From: Candidatus Polarisedimenticolaceae bacterium
GTDB lineage: Bacteria; Acidobacteriota; Polarisedimenticolia; Polarisedimenticolales; DASRJG01
Length of the DNA: 64,000 bases
Assembly (NCBI GenBank): GCA_036376135.1
Contig: DASVAW010000167.1
Coordinates: forward strand, 13,811 to 77,810
Direction of reading: 5' to 3'
Position numbers and translations under genes: made by a program. The notes under the pieces are model-generated. The model had not been told where the DNA came from. It made no database searches and saw only the letters and a program-made list of their open reading frames with translations. This document shows, piece by piece, positions 2-52,324 of this stretch; within the stretch, counting starts at the first letter, position 1; each line of letters starts with the position of its first letter.

Positions 2-860
<859 letters not shown>

Positions 861-6174: not shown

Positions 6175-6566
6175 TTCACCACCCCTTGCTAAAACCGAAA
6201 GCCCCGAAAACCCGCGTCCGCACTGGATTCCTGACGGACTTCGCCCTTGACGGTGCGGGCGGCGCCCCATAAACTCGCAGTACCGGGGGAAAGATCGCGC
6301 TTGCGGGAACGCTCCGACGAGGTCTCGCAGGCATGGGGGTGGGGATGCTCGCGGGTCGCGATTGCACCGTGACGATGAAACGTGGTCAGCACGTTTCCGA
6401 TCCCCCCGCCAGACTGAAATTCTTCAAATCAAGCGTGTTGAACGTACGATGAACCTCCGGACTCGTCAAGGGGCTTTGCGAAGGCGTGCCACGACCCGGG
6501 CCGTTACCCTATGTTGGCCTCGGCGGGAACGCGTCTCCGACGCCGTTTGATCACGGGAGATCATGG

Positions 6567-36327: not shown

Positions 36328-37428
36328 GTGCGCCGATTCCTCGCGTCCGTTCCCGCGTCGTCCCGACGACGGATTCCCGTCGCCGTCGGGGCCGGGGCGC
36401 TCGCGCGACTCGAAGACGACCTCGAGCGCTCGGCGGCCGGCCGCCTCGTCGTGGTCGTCTCGGACTCGAACGTCGCGCCCCTCCACGGCGTGCCGCTCGT
36501 CGGGAGACTCCGCGGTCGCGGACTGCGCGCGGAGCTCGTCGACTTCCCCGCCGGAGAGGTCCACAAGACGCGCGAGACCAAGGCCGCCATCGAGGATCGG
36601 CTCGCCGCCTTCGGCGCGGATCGGTCGACCCTGCTCGTGGCGCTGGGCGGCGGCGTCACCGGGGACGTCGCCGGGTTCGTCGCGGCGACGTGGCTGCGCG
36701 GCGTCGAGGTCGTCCAAGCCCCCACCTCGCTCCTCGCGATGGCCGACGCCGCCCTCGGCGGGAAGACGGGCGTCGACGTTCCCGCGGGGAAGAACCTCGT
36801 GGGGGCGTTCCACCAGCCCTCGGCGCTTTATGCGGACGTGGAGCTCCTCGCCACGCTTCCCGACGCGGACTTCCGGAACGGATTCGCAGAGATCGTGAAG
36901 AGCGCGGTCGTCGGGGATGCCGCCGCGTTCGCGCGCCTCGAGCGGGACGCGTCCGCGCTCGCGCGGCGACGGGCCCCGGTCGTGGAGCGGACTCTCGCCG
37001 CATGCCTTCGACTCAAGGCGCGGATCGTCGCCCGGGACGAGCGCGAGGCCGGGGTGCGGATGATCCTGAACTTCGGTCACACCGCCGCACACGCCGTGGA
37101 GGCGGCTTCCGGGTACGCGGTGTCGCACGGCGAAGCCGTGGCGATCGGCATGACCGCGGAGGGGAGGATCGCGGTCGAGGCCGTGGGTTTTCCGGCGGAG
37201 GACGCGGCGCGGGTCGAGCGGCTCCTCGCCCGGCTCGGCCTGCCGCTTCGCGCGCCCGCGGGAACCTCGAGGGAGGAACTGCTCGCCGCGATGGCGCGCG
37301 ACAAGAAGAACCTGGCGGGGCTCGTGCGGTGCGCATTGCCCCGCGCGATCGGCCGCATGGGGGATGCGGGTGCGGTCGCGACGGTGGTGGACGCGGAACG
37401 CCTCGCCGACGCCCTGCGCGGCGATTGA
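36328..37428 (+). CDS. aroB: 3-dehydroquinate synthase
   Basis: LGGGVTGDVAGFVAATWLRGV, GGKTGVD..GKNLVGAFHQP, NFGHTAAHAVE and SHGEAVAIGM motifs. Confidence 0.9.
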   Translation: MRRFLASVPASSRRRIPVAVGAGALARLEDDLERSAAGRLVVVVSDSNVAPLHGVPLVGRLRGRGLRAELVDFPAGEVHKTRETKAAIEDRLAAFGADRSTLLVALGGGVTGDVAGFVAATWLRGVEVVQAPTSLLAMADAALGGKTGVDVPAGKNLVGAFHQPSALYADVELLATLPDADFRNGFAEIVKSAVVGDAAAFARLERDASALARRRAPVVERTLAACLRLKARIVARDEREAGVRMILNFGHTAAHAVEAASGYAVSHGEAVAIGMTAEGRIAVEAVGFPAEDAARVERLLARLGLPLRAPAGTSREELLAAMARDKKNLAGLVRCALPRAIGRMGDAGAVATVVDAERLADALRGD

Positions 37429-37463
37429 CAGCACCGATCCCGCGCCCTAGGGTAGCCCCTCGC

Positions 37464-40816: not shown

Positions 40817-42789
40817 GGACGCTTGGAGGTTTCGCGGCGGGGCTGCTCGGCATCGCGCTGTTCCTCGCGCCGATCCCTGCGCGAGGGCAAGCGCAAGGCT
40901 CAGCCGAGCTCGAGGCGGCCCGGGTCGAGCTCGAGGCGGCCCGCTTCGACAAGGCGCTCGCGGTGCTCGACGCCCTGCTGGCCCGCCCGGACCTCGAGCC
41001 TTCGATCGCCGGGTCGGCTCTGGCGCTTCGGGCGCAGGCCCGCGTGGCGACCGGAGACCTCGGCCGTGCGGAGCAGGACTGGAAGCGCCTCCTCCTCCTT
41101 CGACCCGACTACGAGCCGGACCCGACGACGACCGGTCGGAAGGCGCGGGAGCGTTTCGATCGGGTCGCGTCGACCGTCGTGGGGGGGCTGAAGTTCGAGA
41201 TCGATCCTCCCGGTGCCCGCATCGCCGTGGACGGGAGGCTCGTCACTCCCGCCGCCGACGGGACGCTGCGCCTTCCCGCCGGAGACCGCCGGATCGAGGT
41301 CGAGCATCCGGGCTTCGACCCGGCCTCGCTCGGGGCCACCGTCATCGCGGGGGACATCGTGCCCGTCCGCGTGCGCCTCGTGCCGAACGCGCGTTCGGTC
41401 GTCCTGCGCACCGAGCCCGACGGTGTGGAGGTCCGCCTCGACGGGACGCTGCTCGGGGTCACGGCGCGGCCGTCCGAGTCCGCGCCCGCGTCCGCCCCCG
41501 CGTTCGCGCGGGCCGCTCGCCTCGAGATCGCGGATCTCCCGCTCGGCGAACACGTCTTCGAGCTCACGAAACCGTGTTACCGGACGACGCGCGTCCGCGT
41601 CCAGGTCCAGGTCGATGTGACCGATCGAGGAGCGATCGCGCTCGAGACCGTCGCGCTCGACCCCGCGCGTGCCGTCGTCGCGGTCCGCGGGAAACCGGAA
41701 GGGGCGGAGGTCCGGGCGGACGGCGTCGCGCTCGGACGCATCCCCCTCGAGGGAGCCGCGCTTTGTGCGGGGACGCGCGCGTTCGAGGTACGCGCCGGGG
41801 GGCGCGTCGTGTGGCGCGAGCGGGTCGAGCTCCCCGAACAGGGAACGGCGACGCTGGAGGTCGCGCCGCGGCCTCAGGCCGTCCTGCTCGGCTCCGCGAC
41901 GTGGCCGGCCGCCCTTCGCGAGCTCGAAGGGGCGTTCGGGGTCGAGGCGCGCGCGGAGTTGCCGGCGGGAACCGACCTGGGAGCCGCGGAGGGTTGGGCG
42001 TCGGTGACGCTTCCTGCGGACACGGACCTCGCAGTGGCGGTCCTTCCCGCCGGAGCGGGGCAGGGGGTCGGCAGGGTGGTCCTGTACAGCCCGATCCTGC
42101 GAACCCTCGAGACGCTCGAGGGCGCCGCGCTGTCGATCCGTCGTCCGTCCCGGGTTCGTCCCACGCTCGGGTGGCGCCTGGCGGATCTCTCCGGTGGCGG
42201 CGTCGTCGTGGCGGAGGTGATTCCCGGCGGTCCTGCGTCCGCGGCGGGGGTCGTCGCCGGCTCCGGGGTCGCCGTCCTCGCGGGAAGGGTCGTCGCGTCC
42301 GCGGCGCAGGCCCACGCCGTGGTCGCCGGGCTGCCTCCGGGCTCGCCGGTCACGATCGATCTCGTCGTGCCGGGGGAAGCCGAGCCGCGAAAGGTCGAAG
42401 CGACGCTTGGCGGCGCCCCCGTCTTCGCGCCGAAGACCGAGGGTCCCGGCGGCGCCGCGATTGCTGCCGCGTGGGGGGCGGTGGATGGCGTCGGGGCCGA
42501 GGATCGCCGGATCGCCCTGGCCCAGCTGGGGAGCCTGCTGCTCGTCGCGGGTCGGGCGGAGGCGGCGGCCGACGCGTTCTCGCGTGCGGCGTCCCCGCCG
42601 ACGACCGAGCCCGGCGCGATCGACTACCTCCTCGGACGCGCCCTCGCCGCCGCGGGGCGCGAGGCCGAGGCCCGCGCCGCTTTCTCACGCGTGCGCGAAG
42701 GGAGCTCGCGCGCCGAAGGGGGCGACGGCCCGCCGCTCGCGCCCGCCGCCGCCGACCACCTCGCCGATCTCGGAGTGGGGGGCCGCTGA
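40813..42789 (+). CDS. Secreted TPR - PEGA repeat - PDZ domain protein
   Basis: PEGA-type motifs are present (PPGARIAVDG, EPDGVEVRLDG, KPEGAEVRADG). There is a PDZ-like segment (GVVVAEVIPGGPASAAGVVAGSGV). It has a GTGA overlap with the upstream gene. Confidence 0.6.
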   Translation: MRTLGGFAAGLLGIALFLAPIPARGQAQGSAELEAARVELEAARFDKALAVLDALLARPDLEPSIAGSALALRAQARVATGDLGRAEQDWKRLLLLRPDYEPDPTTTGRKARERFDRVASTVVGGLKFEIDPPGARIAVDGRLVTPAADGTLRLPAGDRRIEVEHPGFDPASLGATVIAGDIVPVRVRLVPNARSVVLRTEPDGVEVRLDGTLLGVTARPSESAPASAPAFARAARLEIADLPLGEHVFELTKPCYRTTRVRVQVQVDVTDRGAIALETVALDPARAVVAVRGKPEGAEVRADGVALGRIPLEGAALCAGTRAFEVRAGGRVVWRERVELPEQGTATLEVAPRPQAVLLGSATWPAALRELEGAFGVEARAELPAGTDLGAAEGWASVTLPADTDLAVAVLPAGAGQGVGRVVLYSPILRTLETLEGAALSIRRPSRVRPTLGWRLADLSGGGVVVAEVIPGGPASAAGVVAGSGVAVLAGRVVASAAQAHAVVAGLPPGSPVTIDLVVPGEAEPRKVEATLGGAPVFAPKTEGPGGAAIAAAWGAVDGVGAEDRRIALAQLGSLLLVAGRAEAAADAFSRAASPPTTEPGAIDYLLGRALAAAGREAEARAAFSRVREGSSRAEGGDGPPLAPAAADHLADLGVGGR

Positions 42790-42796
42790 CCCGGCC

Positions 42797-43417
42797 TCAG
42801 TACTCGCCCAGCCCGGGGTTGTTCGCGAGCGCCACGTAACGAAGCGCCTGCTGGGTGTCGCCGATGCGCTGCCGCGAGCGCGTCTCCGAAGCGGCGATCT
42901 GATCGAGGACGTACCCGACGTCGTCGGCACGACCGCTGTTGATGCGGCGCTCGAGACCCGCGAGCTCGGTCCGGAGCACGTCGCGGGTGACGGCGTCGGG
43001 GACGAGCGATTTCCGCGACGAAGCCTCGAGCGCCTCGATCTCCTGGCGGACGAGGGCGCGTGCCTGCTCCGCGTCGATCCCGGCCGGAGGCGTGGCCCCC
43101 TGCGCGACCTCGTCGGGCCGGCCGGCCGACCCGGCGACATACCCGACGCCACCGACGAGGGCGGCGGCGAGGAGTCCCGCGGCGAAGGCGGCCCAGGACG
43201 GGACGGTGCGGCGCGGCGTCACCACCACGATTCTCGGCGCGACAGGAACCTCGGGCGCCGCGTCGGCGAGGAGCGCCCTCGTCGCGGCGAGCCTCTCCAG
43301 CGTCGCGGAGCACGACGCGCACCCCGCGAGGTGCGCCTGCACACAGGCGCGATCTTCCGCCGAGACGTCGTCGTAGACGAGCGCGACGAGACGGGACTGG
43401 AACAACTCGCAGGCCAT
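42797..43417 (-). CDS. Anti-sigma factor (zf-HC2, single TM)
   Basis: The N-terminal motif is H-x3-C-x2-C (AHLAGCASCS), followed by a TM helix (WAAFAAGLLAAALVGGVGYVA). It lies immediately downstream of the ECF sigma gene. Confidence 0.75.
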   Translation of the reverse strand: MACELFQSRLVALVYDDVSAEDRACVQAHLAGCASCSATLERLAATRALLADAAPEVPVAPRIVVVTPRRTVPSWAAFAAGLLAAALVGGVGYVAGSAGRPDEVAQGATPPAGIDAEQARALVRQEIEALEASSRKSLVPDAVTRDVLRTELAGLERRINSGRADDVGYVLDQIAASETRSRQRIGDTQQALRYVALANNPGLGEY

Positions 43418-43426
43418 GGCCGACTC

Positions 43427-44044
43427 CTAGACGCGGACGCCCTGCCGTTCGAGGGCGCCGCGCATCGATTCGAGCGCGAAGTACATGCGGGACTTCACGG
43501 TGCTTTCGGGGAGGCCGAGCACCTCGGCGATCTCCCGGAACTTCAGCCCTTCGTATTCCTTGAGGACCACGACCTCCCGCTGCTCGGTCGGGAGGGACTC
43601 GAGCACCCTCCGCACCGCCGCGCGGCGCTCTTCGGCCTCGAGGGCCGCCTCCGGCTGCTCGTCTTCGGGGGCGACCGCCGCGGGTTCCGGGGCCGGGTCA
43701 TCCGCAGCCGGGCGCGGGTGGACGAGGATGCGATCCCATCGCCGGTTGCGGCGAGCACGGTCCCTGCACAGGTTCAGGGCGATCTGGTACATCCAGGTCG
43801 AGAACTTCGCCCCCGGCCGGTAGTGGCGCGCCCGATCGAGCACGCGGAGGAAGGTCTCCTGACAGACGTCCCGCGCCTCGTCGTCGCGCCCGACCAGGCG
43901 CAGGACGAACCGGAACAGCGGCTGCTCCCATCGGGCGACGAGAGCTCCGAGCGAATCGAGGTTCCCCGCCCTCAGGGCCAGGACGAGGTCCTCGTCGGTG
44001 GGTGACTCCAAGCGACCGTTCCTCCGTGGGTCCGGACGCCTCAT
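43427..44044 (-). CDS. ECF-type RNA polymerase sigma factor
   Basis: Region 2 is DVCQETFLRVL...FSTWMYQIALNLCRD. Region 4 is VVVLKEYEGLKFREIAEVLGLPESTVKSRM. An alternative TTG start at 44011 has a better GGAGG Shine-Dalgarno site. Confidence 0.85.
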   Translation of the reverse strand: MRRPDPRRNGRLESPTDEDLVLALRAGNLDSLGALVARWEQPLFRFVLRLVGRDDEARDVCQETFLRVLDRARHYRPGAKFSTWMYQIALNLCRDRARRNRRWDRILVHPRPAADDPAPEPAAVAPEDEQPEAALEAEERRAAVRRVLESLPTEQREVVVLKEYEGLKFREIAEVLGLPESTVKSRMYFALESMRGALERQGVRV

Positions 44045-44305
44045 TAAACGCCCGACGGGCGCGTTTGGTCGACACCCGCGGGATGACGCTGGACGTCGCC
44101 CGCCGTCCGGGGACGGTCACACCGCGTCACCCCGGGGCGGCGCCCGCCGGCGACGGAGGCGGATGCAGCGCCGACGGAAGACGTCGGGCCGTCTCACGAA
44201 TTGGCCCCGAGTCCGGAGCTTTCCGCCCCGAAACTCGGTGCGCGACGCCTCGGGCCGGAGCCCGAAGCGGGGAGGAGCGGACGCGTTATTCAAAGAACTC
44301 GTCGA

Positions 44306-44321
44306 TGGCGTTGCGGTTGCT
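44306..44321 (+). promoter_or_regulatory. Candidate sigma-54 (-24/-12) promoter of the seven-gene signalling operon
   Basis: TGGCGTTGCGGTTGCT against the consensus TGGCACG-N4-TTGCW. TGGC and TTGCT are intact and the GG-N10-GC spacing is exact. It lies 62 nt upstream of the ATG at 44382. Confidence 0.35.
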
Positions 44322-44381
44322 ATCAGGTGGACGAACTCGGCGCAGGGGCAGGTCGCGCCGGGGATCTCCCGAGGAGTCCTC

Positions 44382-45698
44382 ATGACGCTGAGCACGGCCG
44401 CCGAGGATCGAAGGAGGACGGCCCCCCGCGCGGAGGACTGGGAGGCGGTCGCCCGGCGTCAGGACGAGGAGATCCGCAGCTTGTGCGCGGAGGTCCTGGA
44501 GCGTTACGAGGAGGCGACGTTCGTCTACCGTCTGGCGGAGCGGATCGCGGCGGAACGGGGAGAATCGGCCATCGCGCGGATGGTCGTGGACGACGTCGCC
44601 CAGGTCCTCGGCGCGCCGCGCGGCGAGGTGTGGCTGCAGGGCAACGACGCCTTCACGCTCTCCGTGGCCGTCGGAACCCCCGGGGAGGGAGCGGCGGACA
44701 CCGACCTCGAGATGCTGGCCCGGGCGCGCCGCGGCCAACCGTGGGTGCGCGACGGGGACATCCCCACGGTGGCGGTGCCGCTCCCTTCGCCGTCGGGTCC
44801 GCCGCTGGGGGTGCTCGTCCTGCGCGGACGCCGCAGCGGGCGTCCCTATCGCGCCGGCGAGGTCAAGCTCCTCGGCGCGATCGGCTCCCTCGCGTCGGCC
44901 TTCCTGCGCAACGAGCGACTCAGCGAAAAGGCGCGCCAGGCGGAGCTCCGCCAGCGCGAGGACGAGCTTGCCCGCCAGGTCCATCGCGGCCTGCTCCCGC
45001 ACCAGGACCCGGAGTTCGAGGGGCTCGACGTCTCGGGCGGGTTCCGCGCCGCCGAGGTCGTCGGCGGCGACTACTACGGCTACGTGCCGATGGCCGACGG
45101 GAGTCTCGGGATCGCGATGGCCGACGTGTCCGGGCACGGCGTCGGCGCGGCGCTGTACATGGCGACCGCCAAGGGAGCGATCCAGTCCGAGGGTCGGCGG
45201 ATCCTGTCTCCCGCCGAGTTGCTCGCCCAGACCAACGAGGTGCTCCTGGGCGACTTCTCCGGCATGGACATGTTCGCGACCAGCGTGTTCGTCCGCTTCT
45301 ATCCGGGGGCGCGCCGGTTCGTCTACTCGAACGGGGGGCACAATCCGCCGTTCCTCGTGCGCAGCTCCGGAGAGGTCGTGCGTCTCGAGAGGGGAGGGCC
45401 CGCCCTGGGGATCCTCCCGCGCGTCCGCTACCTCGAGGAGTCGTTCCCCTTCGCCGAGGGGGACGTCCTGATCCTCTACACCGACGGGATCGTCGAGGCC
45501 CGTGACGCCGAGCAGCGGTTCTACGGACTCGATCGACTGGTCGAGGAGGTGAATGCCTCGCGGGCCCTTCCCGCGCCCGCGATCCGCTCCCGGGTGATCG
45601 CCGACCTCGAGCGGCACGTCGAAGGGCTGCCCACGCGCGACGACGTCACGCTCGTCGTCGCGCGCGCGATCGCCTCGGGGGCCGAGGTCTCGGGATGA
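44382..45698 (+). CDS. GAF domain - PP2C (SpoIIE/RsbU-type) serine phosphatase
   Basis: GGDYYGYV...IAMADVSGHGVGAALYMA...LYTDGIVEA are PP2C motifs. A GAGGAG Shine-Dalgarno site lies upstream of the ATG. Confidence 0.85.
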   Translation: MTLSTAAEDRRRTAPRAEDWEAVARRQDEEIRSLCAEVLERYEEATFVYRLAERIAAERGESAIARMVVDDVAQVLGAPRGEVWLQGNDAFTLSVAVGTPGEGAADTDLEMLARARRGQPWVRDGDIPTVAVPLPSPSGPPLGVLVLRGRRSGRPYRAGEVKLLGAIGSLASAFLRNERLSEKARQAELRQREDELARQVHRGLLPHQDPEFEGLDVSGGFRAAEVVGGDYYGYVPMADGSLGIAMADVSGHGVGAALYMATAKGAIQSEGRRILSPAELLAQTNEVLLGDFSGMDMFATSVFVRFYPGARRFVYSNGGHNPPFLVRSSGEVVRLERGGPALGILPRVRYLEESFPFAEGDVLILYTDGIVEARDAEQRFYGLDRLVEEVNASRALPAPAIRSRVIADLERHVEGLPTRDDVTLVVARAIASGAEVSG

Positions 45699-46072
45699 GC
45701 GCCGGAAAGCGGATCCTGATCGTCGACGACGACGCGTTCATCCGTCGCCCCCTGGAGTTCATCCTCCGCGAGGAAGGGTTCGAGGCGTTCACCGCCTCCG
45801 ACGGAGAGGAATGCCTGCGCCGGGTCGGGGACGTCCGTCCCGACCTGATCTTCCTCGACGTCATGATGCCGGGTCGCGACGGGTTCGCCGTCTGCGGGGC
45901 CCTCAAGAGCGACCCGGACCTCCGGTGCATTCCCGTGATCCTGCTCTCGGCCCGGGGCATGGAGTCCGACCGGCAACGCGGCCTGGACGTCGGAGCCTCG
46001 GACTTCATGACCAAGCCTTACTCCCCCACGGAGCTGCTGCGTCGCGTGCGCGAGCTCCTTTCCGGAAACTGA
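45695..46072 (+). CDS. Single-domain response regulator (CheY-like receiver)
   Basis: ILIVDDD, the phospho-acceptor context LIFLDVMMPG, LLSA and TKPY. It overlaps the phosphatase gene by 4 nt. Confidence 0.9.
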   Translation: MSAGKRILIVDDDAFIRRPLEFILREEGFEAFTASDGEECLRRVGDVRPDLIFLDVMMPGRDGFAVCGALKSDPDLRCIPVILLSARGMESDRQRGLDVGASDFMTKPYSPTELLRRVRELLSGN

Positions 46073-46082
46073 GGTGGCGCGT

Positions 46083-46271
46083 ATGGCGGAGCTCCGGGAC
46101 GAACGCGTCGCCGCGATCCGGCCCCTGGATCGGGCCGAGATCGAGCGGCGCGTCCGCGATCGCCTCGAGGGGTTGCTCGCCGGTCGGAGCGGGACGGCGC
46201 GTTCCGGCCTCGTACCGATCTCCGCGGCGGAGCTCGTCCGCCTCGCGGCGCCGATGACGTCGCGGAACTGA
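46083..46271 (+). CDS. Hypothetical 62-aa protein (start could be the GTG at 46074)
   Basis: GC3-rich codons in this frame, with a GGTGG Shine-Dalgarno-like site 5 nt upstream. It is wedged between the receiver and the GTPase-kinase with gaps of 14 nt or less. It has no recognisable domain. Confidence 0.4.
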   Translation: MAELRDERVAAIRPLDRAEIERRVRDRLEGLLAGRSGTARSGLVPISAAELVRLAAPMTSRN

Positions 46272-46285
46272 AGGGGACGGCCCGG

Positions 46286-48361
46286 ATGGCGCAGTGGAGC
46301 CGCGCGGATCGGACGCTGCACGCGAAGCTCGTCTACTACGGGCCCGCGCTCGGCGGGAAAACCACGACCCTTCGCGCGATCCACCGCCTCACCGACCCCG
46401 AGGGGCGGAACCCGCTGCTCTCGCTGGCGACCGCCGACGACCGCACGCTCTTTTTCGACCTGCTCCCCTTCGAGCTCGGATCGATCCTCGGTTATCGCGT
46501 CGCGCTGAAGCTGTACACCGTGCCGGGGCAGGTGCGGTACGACGCGACGCGTCGCGTCGTCCTGGCCGGCGCCGACGCCGTCGTGTTCGTCGCCGACGCC
46601 TCGCCCGGTCGCGCGGCGGACGCGAGGGCCAGCTGGGAAGACCTCCGCCGCAACCTCGGGGCGAACCGCATCGAGGGCGCGGGTTTCCCGATCCTCGTCC
46701 AGGCGAACAAGCAGGACGTGGAAGGCGCCGCGGACGCCGCGGAGGTCGCCGGATGGCTCGACGTCAGGCCGCATGTCGTGCGCGGCACGAGCGCGCGGAC
46801 GGGGGAGGGCGTCCTCGACGTCTTCGTTGCGGCCTCGAAGGCGATGCTCTCGCGCCTCGTTTCCCTCGCCGACGAGCGAACGCGGCGCGAGATCGATCCC
46901 GCGCAGCTCGACCGTCAGGTCGAGGCCGCGTTCGCCCCGTACCGGGGGCGTCCGGGCCCGGCCGCCGACGCGCCGGAGCGACGCTCGACGATCCCGCTGG
47001 ACGAGGCCGACCTGCTGGGAAGCGCGGTCCGCGTGGGAACGCAGCTCGGCGCGGAGCTGGCCGACGCGCGGGCCCGGGGCGCCCGCCTCGAGCGGGAGGC
47101 CGACGCGCTCCGCACGCTCACCGAGATGCTCCGCCGGGTGGACGCGACCTTCGATCGGGACGCGATCGCCGACGGCGCGCTCGCCGCGGCGGGGGCGGTG
47201 CTCGGGGCGGCGCGCGCGGAGGTCTGGAGGCTCGACCCGGAGACGGGCCCGAGGCTCGAGCGATCCTGGGGCGACGGCTCGGAGCGACTCGCAGGACCCG
47301 AGGGCGCGTCCTTCATCCGGGCGCTGCTCGAGGCCGGCTCGACGTGCGCGGCGGACGACCTCGCGTGCGAGACGAAGGGCGCGCTGCCGCGCGCCGCCTT
47401 CGCGTGCGCGCCGGTGGAAGGCCCCGCGCGCCGGCTGCTGGCGGTGCACGTGCCCGCCCCGGAGCGGCGTTTCGACGCGGCGGACCTCCGGTTCCTCTCG
47501 ACGGTGGCCGGGCATCTTGCGGCGGGATTCGACAAGGCCGGCGTGTGGGCGGAGCTCGTGGCCCACCGCGAGCGCCTGGAGGTCGCCGTGGCGGCGCGGA
47601 CGAAGGCGCTGGCGCGCGCCTACGAGGAGCTGCGCTCGCTCGATCGGATGAAGGACCGCTTCCTCTCGAGCGTCTCCCACGAGATGCGCACGCCGCTGAC
47701 GGCGATCGTCTGCTCGGCGAGCTTCCTGCGGGACTACGGGGGAGCTCCCGAGGAGCGGCGCGAGATGGCCGAGAACGTCCTGCGGGGCGCCGGCGCGCTC
47801 GAGCGCCTGCTCGACGGCCTGTTCCGCATCGCGCGTCTCGAGCGCGGGGGCGAGCCGCTGGGCGCGAGCCGTCTGTCCGTGCCCTCCATCGTCGGACGCG
47901 CGATCGAGCTCGCGGGGAATCCCCGGGTCGACGTCGCGCTGGCGGAGGATCTGCCCGCGGTGACCGGGGACCCGGATCTCGCTCCGCGCGCGCTCGCCAA
48001 CCTGCTGGACAACGCCCGCAAGTTCTCGCCGCCGGACTCGTGCATCACCCTCCGCGTGGAGGCGTGCGGACTGCGGATCGGGAAACGCACGGCGGAGGCG
48101 GTGGCGTTCACCGTGCTCGACCGCGGGCCGGGTGTTCCCGAGGCCGATCTCGAGCGGCTGTTCGAGGCCTTCGAGCAGGGAGGGGAGACGCTCACGGCGA
48201 AGCCGGCCGGAGTCGGGCTCGGGCTCTACGAGGCGCGCCTCGCGGCGCGCCGTCACGGCGGGTTGCTGCGCTACACGCCGCGGGCGGGCGGCGGCTCGGA
48301 GTTCCGACTGGTGCTTCCGGCGGCGACCGCGTCCGCGGACCTCGAGGCGGTTCGTGGCTGA
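46286..48361 (+). CDS. MglA-type small GTPase fused to a GAF - HisKA - HATPase_c histidine kinase (691 aa, single ORF)
   Basis: GTPase motifs: G1 GPALGGKTT, switch I DRTLFFDLLPF, MglA-type G3 YTVPGQ, G4 NKQD, G5 TSARTG. Kinase motifs: H-box SHEMRTPLTAI, N-box LLDNARKF, G1 DRGPGV, G2 GVGLGL. There is no stop or frame change between the halves. Confidence 0.85.
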   Translation: MAQWSRADRTLHAKLVYYGPALGGKTTTLRAIHRLTDPEGRNPLLSLATADDRTLFFDLLPFELGSILGYRVALKLYTVPGQVRYDATRRVVLAGADAVVFVADASPGRAADARASWEDLRRNLGANRIEGAGFPILVQANKQDVEGAADAAEVAGWLDVRPHVVRGTSARTGEGVLDVFVAASKAMLSRLVSLADERTRREIDPAQLDRQVEAAFAPYRGRPGPAADAPERRSTIPLDEADLLGSAVRVGTQLGAELADARARGARLEREADALRTLTEMLRRVDATFDRDAIADGALAAAGAVLGAARAEVWRLDPETGPRLERSWGDGSERLAGPEGASFIRALLEAGSTCAADDLACETKGALPRAAFACAPVEGPARRLLAVHVPAPERRFDAADLRFLSTVAGHLAAGFDKAGVWAELVAHRERLEVAVAARTKALARAYEELRSLDRMKDRFLSSVSHEMRTPLTAIVCSASFLRDYGGAPEERREMAENVLRGAGALERLLDGLFRIARLERGGEPLGASRLSVPSIVGRAIELAGNPRVDVALAEDLPAVTGDPDLAPRALANLLDNARKFSPPDSCITLRVEACGLRIGKRTAEAVAFTVLDRGPGVPEADLERLFEAFEQGGETLTAKPAGVGLGLYEARLAARRHGGLLRYTPRAGGGSEFRLVLPAATASADLEAVRG

Positions 48362-48800
48362 GCGCTTCACCGCCTCCCTCGCGATCGCGAGCGATCCGGC
48401 GCAGTTCCGCGACGCGCGGGGATGGCTGTCCGCCCTCGCGAAACGCGCCGGCCTCGACGAAGGCGCCGCGCACGACGTGCTCGTCGCGTTCACGGAGGCG
48501 TGCGCGAACGCCTGCCGGCACGCCTACGGCGGCCGGCGCGACGGCCGGATCGAGATCGACGTACGGCACGAAGGGGGTGCCCTGGAGATTCGCGTGCGCG
48601 ACTTCGGCCGCCGGTTCGATCCCGACGGCGTGCCGGAGCCCGAGTTCGACGACCCGCGCGAGGGCGGCTACGGCGTGTTCCTCATGCGCAATCTGATGGA
48701 CGACGTGCGGTTCGGCGTCGACGGTCCGGGGACGGAGGTCGCCATGATCAAGCGCGCCGCCGTGCCCGCCGCCGTCGCGCGAACGGGGGGAGGTTCCTAG
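48354..48800 (+). CDS. RsbW/SpoIIAB-like anti-sigma regulatory factor (stand-alone HATPase_c Ser kinase)
   Basis: FTEACANACRHAY (N-box), VRDFGRRFDP and GGYGVFLMRNLMD in a 148-aa protein. The GTG start overlaps the upstream gene by 8 nt. Confidence 0.8.
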   Translation: MAERFTASLAIASDPAQFRDARGWLSALAKRAGLDEGAAHDVLVAFTEACANACRHAYGGRRDGRIEIDVRHEGGALEIRVRDFGRRFDPDGVPEPEFDDPREGGYGVFLMRNLMDDVRFGVDGPGTEVAMIKRAAVPAAVARTGGGS

Positions 48801-48803
48801 ATC

Positions 48804-49733
48804 ATGGCGGAACTCGTGAGACGGATCGCGCCGGCGGCGGGGGAGGTCCCCGACCTCGCCGAGTTGTGCCGGATCCACGACCTCGGGCTCGAGCTGATCG
48901 AGTGCTCGGACGACCTCGACCACCTGCTCGATCGGGTCCTCGAGGAGTACGAGCGGCGGCTCGCCGAGCTGCCGGGCGACGCGCTCGACGGGCGCGCGAC
49001 CGAGCGGGGCGCGGACTCGCAGCGCAAGCTGCGCGCGCTGGTGATGTTCGCGACCCAGGCGTCGGCGCTGCGTGCGAAGGCCCTCGCCGCCGACGAGATC
49101 CGGCGTCGAGCCGACGCCGTCGAGGCGGGGAACACGCGCCTCAACGGCGTGCTCGCCGCGCTCCAGACCGGTGTCCTGATCGTGTCGGCGGACGGGATCG
49201 TCCGGAAGGCCAATCGGGCCGCGGCCGCGATGTTGTGCGGGGATCCGGAAGCGACCTGCGAGGGAACGCGCACGCCCGCCTTCCTCGACGACGCGCCGCA
49301 CGACGCGGAGTCCGAGGTGGTGCTCGCGCGGGGGCCGGGCGGGCGCACCGTCCTGCTGGTCGCGCGCCGCTCGCTCGGCCCCGTCGACGCGGACGAGGTC
49401 GTGACGCTCAGCGACGTGACGCGGCGCTACGCCGAGCTGGAGGAACGCCACCGCCTCGAGAAACTCGCCGACCTCCTCCGAACCCTCGGCGTCCTCAGCC
49501 ACAAGATCAACAACCCCCTCACCGCGCTCCTGGGCCGCGCGCAGATCCTCCGCGCCAAGGCGGAGACCGATCCTTCGGTCGCGAAGGCGGCGCAGGTCAT
49601 CGAGGAGTCCGCCATCCGGATCGCGGACCTCATCCGGGAGCTCGCGCGCGTCGTCAAGGAGGGGCGGCAGGAGGCCGTGGACCGCGTCCTCGACATGCAG
49701 CACGGCTCCGAGCCCGACGGAGGACGTCCATGA
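48804..49733 (+). CDS. PAS - DHp (HisKA) protein lacking a catalytic ATP-binding domain
   Basis: PAS-like segment VLAALQTGVLIVSADGIVRKANRAAAAML. H-box LGVLSHKINNPLTALLGRAQIL. The ORF ends about 60 aa after the H-box, with no N/G1/G2 boxes. Confidence 0.75.
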   Translation: MAELVRRIAPAAGEVPDLAELCRIHDLGLELIECSDDLDHLLDRVLEEYERRLAELPGDALDGRATERGADSQRKLRALVMFATQASALRAKALAADEIRRRADAVEAGNTRLNGVLAALQTGVLIVSADGIVRKANRAAAAMLCGDPEATCEGTRTPAFLDDAPHDAESEVVLARGPGGRTVLLVARRSLGPVDADEVVTLSDVTRRYAELEERHRLEKLADLLRTLGVLSHKINNPLTALLGRAQILRAKAETDPSVAKAAQVIEESAIRIADLIRELARVVKEGRQEAVDRVLDMQHGSEPDGGRP

Positions 49734-50095
49734 GAGTGGAACGTCTCGACCGGAGCGGGATCGCCAGCCTTCGGCTGACCGGAGCGGACGCCCTCGACAT
49801 GGCGAACGCCCACGACGTCAAACGCGGATGCCTCGAGGCGGTCGAGGACGGGCTCGACGTCGTCGTCGATCTCTCCGAGGTCGACTTCGTCGACTCGGCG
49901 GGGGTCGGCGTGCTGGTCAGCGTGTACAAGCGCACCCGCCTGCGCGGCCGGCGCGCGGCGTTCGTCGGCGTCCGGCCGGGGGTGCTCGCCGTGCTCGCGA
50001 TCCTGCGCCTCGATCAGATCTTCGAGATCCGCCCCGACGCTCCGGCGGCCCTCCGCTCGATCGCGGTGGGGATCGGCGACCCCGCGGACGTCTGA
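49730..50095 (+). CDS. STAS domain anti-sigma-factor antagonist (RsbV/SpoIIAA-like)
   Basis: VVVDLSEVDFVDSAGVGVLVSVYK contains the conserved phosphorylatable Ser in DSAG. It has an ATGA overlap with the upstream gene. Confidence 0.85.
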   Translation: MRVERLDRSGIASLRLTGADALDMANAHDVKRGCLEAVEDGLDVVVDLSEVDFVDSAGVGVLVSVYKRTRLRGRRAAFVGVRPGVLAVLAILRLDQIFEIRPDAPAALRSIAVGIGDPADV

Positions 50096-50102: not shown

Positions 50103-51119
50103 TCAGGCGCCGTCGGCGTCCGCGCGCCGACGGAGGAGGTAGACGGCGACGAACGCGAAGGCGAGGGAGAGCGCGACGTAGGTTCCGGAGGCGGGCGCCG
50201 GGCGACCCGACCCGTCGAGCCACACCGGGGCGGCTCCGAGCAGCAGCACGTTGATCCACGCGTGCACGAGCGCGGGGAGCCAGAGGCTTCGCGAGACGAG
50301 CACCAGCAGGCCGAACAACACGCCCAGCGACGCCGAGAACACGAACCGCTCGAGCGCCTGCTCCCCCCCGGGGGCGAGGACGAAGTGCTCGAGCCCGAAC
50401 ATGAGCGAAGGCGGCAGGAGCGCCGCCCACCGCCGTGCCGCGGGGGAGCGGGCCCCCAGCCGCGGGGCCAGCCGCCCGCATTCCTGCTGCAGCAGTCCCC
50501 GGTAGTAGAGCTCCTCCGCGAACGCGCGCAGGGTCTGTCCCCCGGCGACCCAAAGGCCCAGCGCGTCGAGGCGCGGGCCACGCCAGGCGAATGGGGCGCC
50601 GAGCAGTCGCGGCACGAGCCCGAGCGCGGCGTACGTGGCGCCGACGGCGATCGCGGTCACGACGATCCCCTCGAGGAGCCGTCGGAGCGAGAGGCTCGCG
50701 GCGACCCGGCGGGCGGCGGGAGGCGAGAACGGCCAGAGCAGCGCGCACGACAGCAGCAGTCCGCCCCCGGCGAACGCGCGGTACCACGCGTCGACCATCA
50801 CCGCGGGAGCGAGCTCGGCCGGCACGAATCGATCGAAGACCGGCTGGTAGAGGAAGATCGAGATCCACTTCTCGGTGAGGAGCATCGCGAGCAGAGGGGT
50901 CAGACTTCCCAGCCGAACGCCGGGGCCGGGGCTGGGCCCCCGTCGGCTCTCCCACGACCAGATCAGCAGCACGAAGATCACCGCGGCGAAGAGCAGGCTC
51001 CCGACGGCGGGAGGGGCGTAAGGGGAAGCCGGGGTGTGTTCGTGGAACTGACGGAGCATTCCCGCCGTGAGGAACGTCGCGGCCAGGATCGCCCACGCGA
51101 GGGCGCGCGGGATCCTCAC
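50103..51119 (-). CDS. CPBP family intramembrane glutamic endopeptidase
   Basis: EELYYRG, FGLEH and HAWIN motifs in a polytopic membrane protein. The GTG start overlaps the upstream stop (GTGA). Confidence 0.75.
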   Translation of the reverse strand: MRIPRALAWAILAATFLTAGMLRQFHEHTPASPYAPPAVGSLLFAAVIFVLLIWSWESRRGPSPGPGVRLGSLTPLLAMLLTEKWISIFLYQPVFDRFVPAELAPAVMVDAWYRAFAGGGLLLSCALLWPFSPPAARRVAASLSLRRLLEGIVVTAIAVGATYAALGLVPRLLGAPFAWRGPRLDALGLWVAGGQTLRAFAEELYYRGLLQQECGRLAPRLGARSPAARRWAALLPPSLMFGLEHFVLAPGGEQALERFVFSASLGVLFGLLVLVSRSLWLPALVHAWINVLLLGAAPVWLDGSGRPAPASGTYVALSLAFAFVAVYLLRRRADADGA

Positions 51120-52063
51120 GCGCGGGCCCCTCGAGGCTCCACCGCGACGACGAGACCGCGGGAGGTCGCCAGCCCCCGCGCCATCCGCGGCGTGTTGAAC
51201 GCCGCGGCGGCGCGCCCCGCGCGATCGACGAGGATGAGGCCGGCGTGCCCGTCCACGCGCGGGAGCTCGCGCACGGCCGCGGAAGCGGCGCGCGACGGGA
51301 CGCGCCCGCCGGCGAGCCCGTCCACGGCCGTCTTGGCGAGCACGCAGCGCAGGATCGCCTCCCCCCAGCCCGTGCAGGATGCGGCGCCGAGGCGGTCGTC
51401 CGCCCACGTTCCCGCACCGATGATCGGCGTGTCGCCGACGCGCCCCGGTGCCTTGTCCTGCGTCCCGCCGGTCGAGGTGGCCGCGGCGGATCCGCCGCGT
51501 GCGTCGATCGCGACGGCGCCGACCGTGCCGTGGGGGCGCGCGTGCCGGAACTCGTGCTCGACGAGGTGTCGCTCCCCGCGCCGGATGCGGCGCCAGCGGG
51601 CGAGCTCCCGGCCGACGAGCAGACTGGACGTCCGGCAGGTTTCCGCGCCGTGGGCCTTGGCGAAGCGACGTGCGCCGGCGGCGACGAGCAGGACGTGCGC
51701 GCTGCGCTCGAGGACGAGCCGGGCGACGCTCACGGGGTGCCGAACCCCTTCCACCGCGGCCACCGCGCCGGCGCGTCGGCTCCGCCCCTCCATGATCGAG
51801 GCGTCGAGCTCGAGGCGACCGGCGGCATTCAGGTGAGCGCCGCGGCCTGCGTTGAAGGTCGGGTCGTCCTCCAGGATGCGCACGCATCGCTCGACGACGT
51901 CGAGTGCGTTCGCTCCTTCGAGGAGCAGCGCCCAGCCGGCGCGCAGGGCCCGGTCCACTCCGGCGCGATGGGCCTCCACCTGTCCGTCCGGGATGTTCCA
52001 CGCTCCGCCGTGAACGGCCAACGCGATCGGCACGCCATCCTCGAGCCCGCGTCCCGCCGCCAC
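51116..52063 (-). CDS. Isoaspartyl peptidase / L-asparaginase (Ntn hydrolase); start uncertain (52063 or 52033)
   Basis: LAVHGGAWNIP, the autoprocessing site HGTVGAVAID, and GDTPIIGAGTWAD. The start must lie below tRNA-Sec at 52075. Confidence 0.8.
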   Translation of the reverse strand: MAAGRGLEDGVPIALAVHGGAWNIPDGQVEAHRAGVDRALRAGWALLLEGANALDVVERCVRILEDDPTFNAGRGAHLNAAGRLELDASIMEGRSRRAGAVAAVEGVRHPVSVARLVLERSAHVLLVAAGARRFAKAHGAETCRTSSLLVGRELARWRRIRRGERHLVEHEFRHARPHGTVGAVAIDARGGSAAATSTGGTQDKAPGRVGDTPIIGAGTWADDRLGAASCTGWGEAILRCVLAKTAVDGLAGGRVPSRAASAAVRELPRVDGHAGLILVDRAGRAAAAFNTPRMARGLATSRGLVVAVEPRGARA

Positions 52064-52074
52064 GCCCAGCGGAG

Positions 52075-52171
52075 TGGCGGAAGCGCGTGGGAGTCGAACC
52101 CACCCCGGACGGCGTAACCGCCCGACACAGGTTTTGAAGACCAGGGGGTCCACCGGGACCCGTTCGCTTCC
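52075..52171 (-). tRNA. selC: tRNA-Sec (anticodon UCA), 97 nt including CCA
   Basis: The reverse complement is GGAAGCGAACGGGTCCCGGTGGACCCCCTGGTCTTCAAAACCTG...GGTTCGACTCCCACGCGCTTCCGCCA. The CUUCAAA anticodon loop is identical to E. coli selC. It has a 6-bp D-stem with a 4-nt loop (GGGTCC-CGGT-GGACCC) and a long extra arm. One U-U mismatch is noted in the anticodon stem. Confidence 0.85.
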
Positions 52172-52324
52172 TCCGTGGAGGGGCGCCCAATGTAGAGGGG
52201 AGCCCGTTCGAACGTCAACGAGACGCTTCGCGCGAAGCGCGCTCTGCGGCATCGGCTCAAAAAGGTTACAGCGCCAGGAGCAATCGTGTCGTAGTGTTAC
52301 GCTTCCGCCCCTGAAGGAACCGCG

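Follow-up and report, generated by a model that had tools for sequence, protein, structure and literature searches.

The 64,000 nucleotides analysed here (the window, 64 kb) contain a conserved operon of seven genes, g1 to g7, in an acidobacterium, in which an MglA-type G domain fused to a histidine kinase is encoded together with a receiver, a complete PP2C/STAS/RsbW-like partner switch and a DHp protein that has no catalytic domain (Table 1). We tentatively interpret the operon, from its sequence, as a phosphorelay or phosphatase circuit that would be gated by the G domain and whose DHp protein would be controlled by the partner switch. The output may accordingly be a flow of phosphoryl groups, perhaps towards a sigma54 activator, and not the release of a sigma factor.

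Table 1. Features of the operon and other features of the window.
Feature	Position	Strand	Evidence
GAF-sigma54 activator, complete	817-2685	-	
RpoS/RpoD-like sigma	6486-7451		Not SigB/F/G-like
zf-HC2 anti-sigma, single-pass	42797-43417	-	Pfam; transmembrane segment at residues 72-98
ECF sigma, divergent from operon	43427-44044	-	Pfam
Sigma54-type -24/-12 promoter	44306-44321	+	TGGCGTTGCGGTTGCT; 60 nt upstream of g1 ATG
Seven-gene operon	44382-50095	+	
g1, GAF-PP2C (SpoIIE/RsbU-type) Ser/Thr phosphatase, 438 aa	44382-45698	+	Pfam SpoIIE 5e-50, residues 239-428
g2, single-domain receiver (CheY/Spo0F-like), 125 aa	45695-46072	+	Pfam Response_reg 1e-28
g3, conserved 62-aa protein	46083-46271	+	GC3 0.89
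g4 residues 1-193, MglA-type G domain	46286-46864	+	phmmer against PDB
g4 residues 194-691, linker-helix-GAF-DHp-CA of cytoplasmic histidine kinase	46865-48361	+	Pfam GAF_2, HisKA, HATPase_c
g5, RsbW/SpoIIAB-like GHKL Ser kinase/partner-binding protein, 148 aa	48354-48800	+	Pfam HATPase_c_2 6e-34
g6, helical N-domain, PAS and DHp (H233), no catalytic ATPase domain, 309 aa	48804-49733	+	Pfam HisKA 2.6e-10
g7, single-domain STAS (RsbV/SpoIIAA-like), DS56AG phosphorylation motif, 121 aa	49730-50095	+	Pfam STAS 8e-19

Operon organisation, conservation and promoter

All seven genes are co-directional and look coding (GC3 of 0.88-0.93 against GC2 of 0.44-0.58), with a Shine-Dalgarno-like GGAGG or GAGG 6-10 nt before each start. 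Junctions recomputed from the coordinates are -4 nt (g1/g2), +14 nt (g3/g4), -8 nt (g4/g5), +3 nt (g5/g6) and -4 nt (g6/g7), while that of g2/g3 is +10 nt with ATG 46083 or +1 nt with GTG 46074; the ATG is preferred as the start of g3 because the GTG falls within the Shine-Dalgarno sequence. Gene order and domain assignments (from ORFs and Pfam) and all junctions agree with a preliminary description of this DNA. The start which that description gave to g1 and the operon, 44306, does not hold, since it does not share the frame of the stop at 45698; ATG 44382, with GAGGAG 8 nt upstream, is the supported start. Searches of the operon interior found neither sigma70-like promoters nor intrinsic terminators, which, together with the tight packing and conserved order and overlaps, supports the earlier claim of a single transcript: the seven genes are probably co-transcribed.

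The window matches a MAG of Candidatus Polarisedimenticolaceae (Acidobacteriota). Synteny extends to about 20 independent loci of Polarisedimenticolaceae-like Acidobacteriota, and because gene order and overlaps recur there at protein identities of 45-65%, the arrangement is more than chance. Loss of synteny in related genomes, which the preliminary description had named as evidence against the operon, is not seen. Stop/start overlaps are conserved at four junctions over this identity range, that of g1/g2 being mostly 4 nt, and 1-8 nt in three loci, among the orthologues tabulated. Two or three independent modules could in principle be merely co-transcribed, their synteny reflecting narrow-clade ancestry and not functional coupling, given that synteny also covers the flanks (STK-NHL-PDZ upstream, Rce1-like and asparaginase genes downstream) and that the content of g5, g6 and g7 differs among loci. 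We consider this very unlikely, however, in view of the conserved overlaps, the single conserved promoter before g1, a core of PP2C, receiver and G-domain kinase that stays intact in two loci with different flanks (L008 and L020), and a g5-g6 fusion (below) that physically joins two modules.

In 13 of 16 syntenic loci g1 is preceded by a sigma54-type motif (TGGCACGTACCTTGCC in L020), and TGG-N8-TTGCW has two matches in the 64 kb where 0.5 would be expected; we infer that the operon may be sigma54-dependent, which forms part of our best explanation. Position 44306, formerly taken as the start of g1, sits on this promoter, which the preliminary description missed. Two sigma54-activator homologues are encoded in the window, one GAF-type and one FHA-type (the latter with a degenerate GAFTGA), and no NtrC-type receiver-activator was found within the 64 kb. 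In L020, a DHp gene without a CA domain overlaps the gene of a REC-AAA+-HTH activator of NtrC type whose GAFTGA is intact, both genes lying directly upstream of the operon's sigma54 motif.

The G-domain kinase, receiver and small protein

Pfam resolves g4 into an Arf-like G domain, GAF, HisKA and HATPase_c, and a phmmer search of the PDB aligned its G domain without gaps to Myxococcus xanthus MglA (6h17/5ymx; residues 7-191 to 7-191, E 9e-40). The G-domain motifs (P-loop G19PALGGKTT27, R53, T54, T78VPGQ82 and N141KQD144) are invariant across 26 homologues, in which this is the most conserved region of the protein. The residue equivalent to Ras G12 is Ala throughout the family, so that this domain may not undergo the cycle of MglA. 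Kinase motifs are likewise present (H-box SH465EMRTPL, N576, D612xGxG and G642xGxG). In the AF2 model (pLDDT 77.5), a linker of low confidence (226-239) is followed by a helix (243-287), GAF (291-397), an uninterrupted helix (398-466) and CA (528-680); the linker joining the G domain to the rest is flexible and poorly conserved, and at a pTM of 0.37-0.43 for this model and that of a fused g5-g6 homologue, domain contacts are not reliable.

The GTPase-kinase fusion appears to be undescribed. It was correctly recognised in the preliminary description as part of a merger of signalling systems, but it is not a one-off, the architecture being widespread in Acidobacteriota, and its G domain belongs specifically to the MglA type. 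Myxococcus and Corallococcus encode a G protein of this kind (239-240 aa) on its own, in a gene that overlaps that of a PocR-HisKA-HATPase_c kinase by 4 nt, implying that the fusion records a partnership between G protein and kinase. A receiver gene directly adjoins G-domain kinases even in distant clades (e.g., L011-L018), and in Holophaga (L062) the receiver is fused to the kinase. The receiver g2 has the full phospho-acceptor set (D11/D12, D55, S85 and K107), and the His-Asp pair reported earlier is found in H465 and D55.

No Pfam family matched g3. Its orthologues share RPLxxx[DE][LI], P-I-SAA-[DE]-LVR and an invariant C-terminal Asn, and occupy the same position in nine loci; an HMM built from them found seven more, each time immediately before g4. 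Independent gene callers predicted g3 in four loci (L003, L165, L166 and L167), and it is missing from four others (L001, L002, L004 and L088). By these sequence criteria, the 62-aa ORF is a conserved gene.

The order of receiver, small helical protein and G domain, a G domain that is MglA-like at every switch residue, and the bridging of RomR-REC and MglA-GTP by RomX (bioRxiv 10.1101/2024.02.20.581209) invite the idea of a polarity or localisation module, with the MglA-type domain as an output or targeting device that places the kinase at a cellular site via g2 and g3, which would play the parts of RomR-REC and RomX. This seems highly doubtful to us, given that RomX (8ZNA) was not among the PDB matches of the g3 profile, that g3 is shorter than RomX and missing from a subclade (L001, L004 and L088), that g2 retains its phospho-acceptor set beside a competent kinase, and that no motility, pilus or MglB genes were found linked to the operon. 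Nor did the operon, or 10 small proteins encoded in the window, yield any Roadblock/MglB protein, in line with the preliminary description, which had stated that such a GAP is absent.

The partner switch and the DHp protein

The partner switch is complete, as was reported before: no catalytic motif is missing, and STAS has its Ser56. The phosphatase g1 has the metal-binding motifs GGD230YYG, D248VSGHG, TD368G and RD420D, and its nearest solved structures are SiaA (6k4e) and RssB (3es2), the latter a receiver-linked PP2C; its GAF domain misses the threshold in the protein encoded here (E 0.01) and is supported by detection in seven of 10 orthologues (best E 7.6e-9). The RsbW-like g5 (NCBIfam RsbW, 6.5e-18) keeps the N-box E48xxxN52xxxH and the G-box GGYGVF, and in a fused homologue the corresponding domain can be superposed with TM 0.8-0.9 on RsbW (6m37) and SpoIIAB (1til/1l0o). 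The STAS protein g7 exceeds the cut-off for the NCBIfam anti-sigma factor antagonist (1.9e-16), its D-S being invariant in nine orthologues.

No sigma gene occurs within the operon in any of the about 20 loci, consistent with the earlier account. The nearby sigma genes named in that account comprise the non-ECF sigma and one ECF sigma, whereas the second member of its 'ECF pair' at 42797-44044 is a zf-HC2 anti-sigma. In almost every syntenic locus this sigma/anti-sigma pair adjoins the operon divergently. In L008 the pair is 7 kb distant, and in L020 the sigma gene, the only member detected, is separated from the operon by a DHp-only gene and a bEBP gene. The pair is a conserved neighbour that may or may not belong functionally with the operon. 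With the ECF sigma having its own membrane anti-sigma and the other sigma being RpoS/RpoD-like, neither is a natural RsbW client. This bears on a canonical anti-sigma switch, in which g5 would sequester the ECF sigma or a group-3 sigma encoded outside the window, g7 and g1 would release it, and the two-component part would only feed the phosphatase, as in RsbK-RsbY or HptB-HsbR-HsbA. Such a switch is suggested by the match of g5 to RsbW/SpoIIAB in sequence and fold, the complete PP2C/STAS/kinase trio, the conserved ECF neighbour and the well-documented two-component control of PP2C partner switches (PMC4574943, PMC6482189, PMC10950880), but we judge it unlikely, given the consistently sigma-free operon, sigma factors that are already paired or not SigB/F/G-like, and a promoter of sigma54 and not ECF type. 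It would also leave the fusion and joint absence of g5 and g6 unexplained.

In g6, Pfam detected HisKA, a weak PAS and no HATPase_c; PAS families were precomputed in many homologues. All 120 homologues carry SH[K/R]INNPLT and end 69-80 residues past the His (about 77 in g6), without a CA domain, and the best family matches of g6 are AtoS, NtrB and ZraS, kinases of NtrC-family partners. The H+1 residue is K or R in all 120, never acidic (Lys beside His233 in g6). As a basic residue is also found there in active HisKA_2/HWE kinases, this is no proof of a lost kinase-substrate function. Five of the top 120 homologues (P0154, P0211, P0212, P0216 and P0221) are in-frame g5-g6 fusions, all in one clade that has diverged to 69% identity, and therefore reflect one evolutionary event and not recurrent fusion. 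In the AF2 model of a fused homologue the ATPase is N-terminal, and a disordered linker, the helical N-domain of g6 and PAS lie between it and the DHp, which consists of two helices. No description of this RsbW-helical domain-PAS-DHp architecture was found.

Where g5 is lacking (L010, L006, L008 and L087), g6 is short and PAS-less, or absent. The fusion and this shared absence make g6 the obvious candidate partner of g5, and weaken the earlier view that g5 has no obvious cis-encoded target, of which the absence of a sigma gene from the operon stands. STAS and PP2C are kept without g5 in L010, L087 and L020, and PP2C without g5 or STAS in L008, so the partner switch is not obligatorily tied to g6.

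Adjacency and natural fusion could also mean that g5 provides the missing catalytic domain of g6, in trans or, when fused, in cis, and phosphorylates His233, with STAS binding diverting or inhibiting g5. GHKL Ser kinases are homologues of histidine-kinase CA domains, g5 has intact N and G boxes, and the His of g6 is invariant in an otherwise standard HisKA H-box. We nevertheless find such a split histidine kinase quite improbable: the fused ATPase is N-terminal and set apart from the DHp, an arrangement not known from any kinase, H+1 is acidic in none of the homologues, DHp and His survive in three loci without g5 (L010, L006 and L008), and a cognate STAS with a phosphorylatable Ser is encoded in the same operon.

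Proposed circuit and known systems

In our preferred G-domain-gated circuit, g4 would be the centre, a soluble histidine kinase whose helix-GAF-DHp-CA core may act as built-in effector for the flexibly tethered G domain. The nucleotide state of this domain would gate autophosphorylation at H465, perhaps assisted by g3 and modulated by a GAF ligand, and phosphate would pass to D55 of g2. From there, g6 may pass it on as a Spo0B-like transferase to a sigma54 activator of NtrC type, so that the circuit would feed back on the promoter of the operon itself, or may serve as a dedicated phosphatase. As the switchable partner of g6, g5 would be competed for by unphosphorylated g7 and would phosphorylate its Ser56, and g1, which is akin to receiver-linked PP2Cs and whose translation may be coupled to that of g2, may reset g7. 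From such a relay and switch, the output would follow as phosphoryl flow.

The Spo0F-Spo0B phosphorelay pairs a single-domain receiver with a His four-helix-bundle protein unable to autophosphorylate, and domain A of EnvZ has phosphatase activity as DHp alone. The combination of g2 and g6 resembles these; however, Spo0B and ChpT keep a degenerate CA-like domain that g6 lacks, and g6 carries, N-terminal to the DHp, a helical domain and PAS, and has a candidate partner of RsbW type. OsaC of Streptomyces fuses an RsbW-like domain to PAS and other signalling domains, as does Rv1364c (PDB 3ke6), where partner-switch parts are tethered, but these join RsbW to PP2C and/or STAS, not to a DHp.

M. xanthus MglA (group 1; PMC4316618, PMC13408092), of the MglA/MglB and RomR-RomX system, shares with g4 the P-loop, intrinsic Arg53, Thr54, NKxD and TVPGQ82 with Thr for the Ras Asp, and a receiver and small helical protein are encoded beside the G domain here, as in that polarity switch. 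In contrast, the G domain of g4 forms one polypeptide with a GAF histidine kinase and has Ala for Gly21 (the Ras G12 position), g3 is not detectably related to RomX, and neither a Roadblock GAP (in operon or window) nor linked motility genes accompany it. The conservons CvnA-D (PMC4316618, PMC12236503) also functionally link an MglA-family GTPase to a histidine kinase-like protein of the same operon, the kinase being modulated by accessory proteins. Their GTPase, however, belongs to group 2, in which MglA and MglB alike lack a conserved arginine finger (PMC4316618), and is a separate protein accompanied by a Roadblock protein and DUF742; their kinase is membrane-bound and they have no receiver, whereas the G domain here is group-1-like, fused, and accompanied by a receiver and partner switch.

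Two-component-controlled PP2C/STAS switches are known from RsbK-RsbY-RsbV-RsbW (Bacillus cereus, PMC4574943), HptB-HsbR-HsbA (Pseudomonas, PMC6482189), RsfSR-RsfB (M. smegmatis, PMC10950880) and HenR-STAS (Anabaena, PMC13555669), all with a histidine kinase and receiver wired to the PP2C that dephosphorylates the STAS protein, and some such switches have non-sigma outputs (PMC4574943, PMC6482189, PMC10950880, PMC13555669). In all four the receiver is N-terminal in the PP2C, whereas here it is the separate g2, overlapping the 3' end of g1, the kinase carries a G domain, and the RsbW-like protein is tied to a DHp protein instead of a sigma factor.

Conserved gene order and the small protein g3

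Homologue look-ups and two collection scans, of which the metagenome scan added only a few close loci, recovered the same arrangement in at least about 20 loci (each designated by L and a number) at 45%–65% protein identity. It begins with a Ser/Thr kinase–NHL–PDZ/PEGA operon, continues with a zf-HC2 anti-sigma gene and an ECF sigma gene on the opposite strand, and ends with PP2C–REC–(g3)–G-domain kinase–RsbW-like–PAS-DHp–STAS, followed by a convergent Rce1-like gene (see table; REC, receiver; DHp, His-bearing helical domain of histidine kinases). In most relatives, the first of these operons accompanies the ECF pair and the signalling operon in synteny, and the overlaps g1/g2, g4/g5 and g6/g7 were conserved across loci. 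The preliminary description had named a lack of synteny among homologues as grounds for rejecting the operon; since order is kept and the loci are syntenic, these grounds fall away. A rival explanation holds that unrelated modules are merely co-transcribed here; the conserved overlaps and the g5–g6 fusion described below speak against it. The operon is real and conserved, and combines a two-component system with a partner switch.

The seven plus-strand genes claimed earlier were borne out by a GC3-based gene map and direct translation, each with a GC3 of 0.88–0.93 and a Shine-Dalgarno-like motif in a window of 72% G+C, and recomputing the junction lengths returned exactly the values listed. 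The kinase g4 shows 100% identity to a protein from a 'Candidatus Polarisedimenticolaceae bacterium' MAG (Acidobacteriota). The start proposed for g1 (44306) does not lie in the reading frame, and the ATG at 44382 is supported instead; two other starts, 44163 and 44238, were rejected because they lie ahead of the conserved promoter in a stretch without coding GC3. Within the operon, neither a sigma70-like promoter nor an intrinsic terminator was apparent, which is weak evidence, and checks of the operon region for repeats and Rfam families gave nothing relevant.

Features of the signalling operon, its surroundings and selected homologous loci (window coordinates unless a locus is named)
Feature	Coordinates	Strand	Remarks
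Complete GAF-sigma54 activator	817-2685	-	~42 kb from promoter
PAS hybrid histidine kinase with C-terminal receiver	7530-9797	+	
SelB elongation factor gene	9787-11655	+	
Three-gene operon: Ser/Thr kinase with PEGA, NHL-repeat protein, PEGA/PDZ/TPR protein	37425-42789	+	4-nt overlaps
Sigma54-type -24/-12 element	44306-44321		60 nt upstream of g1 ATG; motif match
g1, GAF-PP2C phosphatase	44382-45698	+	GC3-based gene map and direct translation
g2, receiver	45695-46072	+	GC3-based gene map and direct translation
g3, 62-aa protein	46083-46271	+	GC3-based gene map and direct translation
g4, G-domain-GAF-kinase	46286-48361	+	GC3-based gene map and direct translation
g5, RsbW-like GHKL protein	48354-48800	+	GC3-based gene map and direct translation
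g6, PAS-DHp protein	48804-49733	+	GC3-based gene map and direct translation
g7, STAS protein	49730-50095	+	GC3-based gene map and direct translation
tRNA-Sec gene	52079-52171	-	Rfam 71.9 bits
FHA + sigma54-type AAA+ + HTH_8 protein	52325-54196	+	Pfam matches only part of AAA+ domain
DHp gene and NtrC-type activator	L020 5702-7494	+	TGGCACGTACCTTGCC next, at 7650
Split pair, MglA paralogue and PocR-HisKA-HATPase_c kinase	L063 9998-12222 (Myxococcus sp. Y35)		Also L053, L064, L077, L082

Gene content varied around a stable core. PP2C and G-domain kinase genes were present in every locus and the receiver was detected in all but L089, while the full set of g5, long g6 and g7 occurred in eleven loci, the window included. 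In L004, g5 and g6 are fused. L010 and L006 have no g5, and their g6 is a PAS-less protein of 186 aa, followed by STAS in L010 (the L006 contig stops within g6). STAS directly follows g4 in L087, and in L008 (Acidobacteria bacterium Mor1) only a short g6 lies downstream of g4. In L165, the RsbW-like gene was called at only 67 aa (11120-11323), which may reflect decay or a frameshift.

The small g3 is a real gene. In 9 loci, an orthologue of 62–81 aa is encoded after the receiver and before the kinase; these proteins have in common the motifs RPLxxx[DE][LI] and P-I-SAA-[DE]-LVR and, at the C-terminus, an invariant Asn. An HMM of the orthologues added seven loci, with the same position every time, and a subclade (L001, L002, L004 and L088) does without the gene. 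The protein matched no family in Pfam or NCBIfam, and a profile of the 9 orthologues found no relative among PDB sequences. RomX, a three-helix bundle (PDB 8ZNA), was not retrieved at E up to 10, so that a RomX identity has no support in this comparison of sequences. A single-sequence search of 1.84 billion representatives yielded one close orthologue only and thus no fused forms that could have hinted at function.

Sigma54-type promoter and candidate activators

Upstream of g1 lies the element TGGCGTTGCGGTTGCT, which at the motif level has the features used to define a sigma54-type promoter (GG at -24 and GC at -12, spaced as in TGGCAC-N5-TTGCW, and a position ahead of the first gene). The form TGG-N8-TTGCW has two occurrences in the window, where 0.5 would be expected, and the strict form of the element precedes g1 in 13 of the 16 syntenic loci, with L020 carrying the near-consensus TGGCACGTACCTTGCC. 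Because the window encodes a complete GAF-sigma54 activator, the organism uses sigma54; no rpoN was found within the window. Judged on the sigma54-type motif alone, an ECF-driven operon was set aside, the intergenic region carrying this conserved motif instead.

In L020, an NtrC-type REC-AAA+-HTH activator with an intact GAFTGA is encoded directly upstream of the sigma54 motif, and its gene is preceded, with a 4-nt overlap, by one for a DHp protein (H-box RHDLNNPLT) that lacks CA, the catalytic ATPase domain of histidine kinases. The FHA protein downstream of the window operon was also considered as an activator and is an unlikely one, as the GAFTGA position reads DDLAGD and relatives show no synteny for its gene. 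Its FHA domain could relate to the Ser/Thr kinase operon upstream of the signalling operon.

Two further features accompany the promoter region. A conserved A+T-rich element, GTTATTCAAAG at 44286-44298 in the window, lies about 10 nt upstream of the -24 TGG in a genome that is otherwise 72% G+C and also occurs as TTGATATTCA in L003, L085, L086, L094, L001 and L009; candidate roles are IHF binding, activator binding or that of an operator. An extra ORF without a Pfam family lies between promoter and g1 in L005, L006, L010, L020, L087, L089 and L166, and not in the window; an example is MQTKGSGPRAKRRRVVDVLLVGG... in L010, and it was called as an 88-aa gene in L166.

Beyond the operon, the stretch 51116-52190 on the minus strand has no Pfam match, and the asparaginase gene found at this position in relatives seems to be missing from the window. 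The tRNA-Sec and SelB genes indicate selenocysteine use.

Signalling proteins of the operon

By Pfam and NCBIfam, g4 comprises an Arf/MglA-like G domain, GAF, HisKA and HATPase_c. Compared with all PDB sequences, residues 1-205 matched MglA of M. xanthus and T. thermophilus at about 1e-39, and the Arl and Arf families came next, at about 1e-7; residues 7-191 pair with 7-191 of M. xanthus MglA (6h17/5ymx) without a gap (E 9e-40). Among 26 aligned homologues (48%–85% identity), conservation is highest in the G domain, where G19PALGGKTT27, D52R53T54, T78VPGQ82 and N141-K-x-D144 (N141KQD144 in g4) are invariant. Group 1 MglA is defined by an intrinsic arginine finger, a catalytic glutamine and a Thr-for-Asp G3 motif (PMC4316618), and g4 has the corresponding sequence features (P-loop, switch I Arg and Thr, TxxGQ and NKxD). 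It differs from a single-domain MglA of 150–240 aa in that the G domain is the first 193 of 691 residues, and from the group 1 trait of a coupled Roadblock/MglB GAP within four genes (PMC4316618) in that, as claimed previously, no Robl_LC7 domain was found in the operon, the flanking genes or 10 small window proteins, nor among the called genes of six relatives. A rival explanation makes the operon a polarity module; the MglA-like domain speaks for it, and the lack of a linked MglB gene against it.

The position of Ras G12 and MglA G21 is occupied in g4 by Ala21 (46346-46348), as in 26 of 26 family members and 96 of 162 acidobacterial MglA-like domains, and Gly is retained in the Myxococcus and Holophaga forms. 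Mutants at this position (Ras G12, MglA G21V) are the basis for expecting slower GAP-type hydrolysis, and by analogy Ala21 may slow it, which we regard as a lead and not a result.

In the AF2 model of g4 (pLDDT 77.5), the G domain (1-193) is succeeded by a low-confidence, poorly conserved linker (226-239), a long helix (243-287), GAF (291-397), a single continuous helix bearing H465 (398-466) and CA (528-680). Because of this linker, the model suggests that the G domain is tethered and not rigidly in line with the signalling helix. All kinase boxes are present (H465, N576, D612xGxG, FEAFEQG and G642xGxG as H, N, G1, F and G2), and g2, which Pfam and NCBIfam assign to the receivers, has the acidic pocket (D11/D12), phospho-Asp (D55), Ser (S85) and Lys (K107) of a receiver, so the His-Asp pair proposed in the preliminary description stands.

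The same is true of the RsbU/RsbV/RsbW-type set, in which g1, g7 and g5 supply a PP2C, a single-domain STAS with a DS[AS]G Ser, and a GHKL kinase with N and G boxes. PP2C/SpoIIE matched g1 at 5e-50 (Pfam), with metal-binding D230, D248, D368 and D420 and an N-terminal domain that is GAF in 7 of 10 orthologues. STAS matched g7 at 8e-19, S56 lying within VDSAG, whose D-S is invariant in 9 orthologues; HATPase_c_2 matched g5 at 6e-34 (N box E48, N52, H; G box GGYGVF), and its fold, taken from the equivalent domain of a fused homologue, matches 6m37 and 1til. Judging from sequence, all catalytic motifs expected for activity are present in g1, g2, g4, g5 and g7. In loci without the RsbW-like gene, the 37425-42789 operon could supply the STAS kinase.

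We assessed which protein g5 might act on, as the preliminary description saw no obvious target encoded in cis. A canonical anti-sigma role would be the textbook rival, and the first domain of the g5–g6 fusion can be superposed on RsbW and SpoIIAB, also on their structures in complex with RsbV, SpoIIAA and sigma F. However, g1 to g7 include no sigma gene, as had been stated, and the two sigma factors encoded in the window are not natural clients of an RsbW: one is RpoS/RpoD-like, and the ECF sigma is already paired with a single-pass anti-sigma. We consider g6 the likeliest partner of g5, a candidate client suggested by the g5–g6 fusion, by the 3-nt spacing of the two genes in the window, and by the loss of g5 together with the PAS domain of g6. 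In-frame fusions form five protein clusters of 447–473 aa, from different samples and diverged to 69% identity; as all five are one clade, they represent a single retained fusion. Its AF2 model (pLDDT 81) runs from the RsbW-like domain through a disordered linker (140-167) to a helical domain, PAS and a two-helix DHp. Domains were good in both AF2 models, and since pTM was 0.43 (fusion) and 0.37 (g4), we draw no docking conclusion from either.

According to Pfam and NCBIfam, g6 is PAS plus HisKA without an ATPase domain. Its family comprises 265 matches; among the best 120, the H-box SH[K/R]INNPLT is present in 120/120, position H+1 is occupied by K (119 members) or R (1 member) and is never acidic, and all end 69–80 residues past the His, with a CA domain in 0/120. 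Thus g6 lacks two kinase features of HisKA proteins (HATPase_c and an acidic H+1) and keeps His233 and NNPLT. HisKA domains carry an H-E/D-x-x-T/N motif, and domain A of EnvZ retains phosphatase activity. By analogy, the missing CA and non-acidic H+1 therefore predict that g6 has no autokinase function and would still engage a receiver, as a phosphatase or a Spo0B-like transferase. The fusion and close spacing could also be read as g5 and g6 making up a split kinase, a rival that the non-acidic H+1 speaks against. In family matches, the H-box of g6 is of the type found in kinases that partner NtrC-family regulators (AtoS, NtrB and ZraS). An RsbW-like protein coupled to a CA-less DHp protein appears to be undescribed, and would extend partner switching to direct phosphotransfer control.

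Proposed signal path and relation to known systems

From the anatomy, conservation, fusion and co-absence observed here, we infer a series of biochemical steps. The kinase g4 would be gated by its G domain and phosphorylate g2, and g6 would take or remove the phosphate of g2; g5, g7 and g1 would act as a partner switch with g6, not a sigma factor, as client, and a possible exit would be an NtrC-type activator acting on the operon's own sigma54 promoter. A bolder version, which we consider unlikely to hold as a whole, is that MglA-type G domains are a widespread, undescribed class of kinase input; that the G-protein-coupled kinase drives a phosphorelay via the CA-less DHp protein, which an RsbW-like 'anti-DHp factor' restrains and STAS/PP2C frees; and that the receiver and small protein may do for the G domain what RomR-RomX does for MglA. 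If true, partner switching would control phosphotransfer in place of a sigma factor.

MglA-like G domains were found at the N-terminus of many acidobacterial proteins of 340–800 aa, with the architectures G-GAF-HK, G-PAS-HK, G-PAS-HK-REC (787 aa in Holophaga foetida DSM 6591), G-GAF only, and G plus unknown sequence; the kinase forms are flanked by a receiver gene. In L025–L039, L046, L055 and others, such a domain heads proteins of 340–600 aa whose remainder has no Pfam family or GAF only. In Myxococcus and Corallococcus, a separate gene for a G protein of 239–240 aa overlaps by 4 nt that of a PocR-HisKA-HATPase_c kinase. This length agrees with those given for SofG and LILAB_12945 (PMC4316618, with Table S2), and the Myxococcus 239-aa protein may be a SofG candidate, a likeness of length alone. 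The survey of the MglA family considered only proteins of 150–240 aa (PMC4316618) and therefore could not see fused kinases. In the open-access literature, we found no description of a histidine kinase fused to an MglA-like or Ras-like domain, an absence that is not proof, and MglA-type G domains as N-terminal kinase modules appear to be undescribed.

The split Myxococcus pair, in which a kinase gene overlaps that of a 239-aa MglA paralogue, suggests where to seek regulators of orphan MglA paralogues. Cultured hosts include Holophaga foetida DSM 6591 and Geothrix oryzisoli, with related architectures, and Acidobacteria bacterium Mor1, which carries the core operon. In bacteria, small Ras-like GTPases are usually regarded as following a signalling logic distinct from that of two-component systems, and to our knowledge the actinobacterial conservon, in which the signal path is unclear, is the only studied link between them. 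With hundreds of acidobacterial proteins uniting GTPase and kinase covalently, the family described here would add a new kinase input, and its tethered G protein–effector pair could show how a kinase reads nucleotide state.
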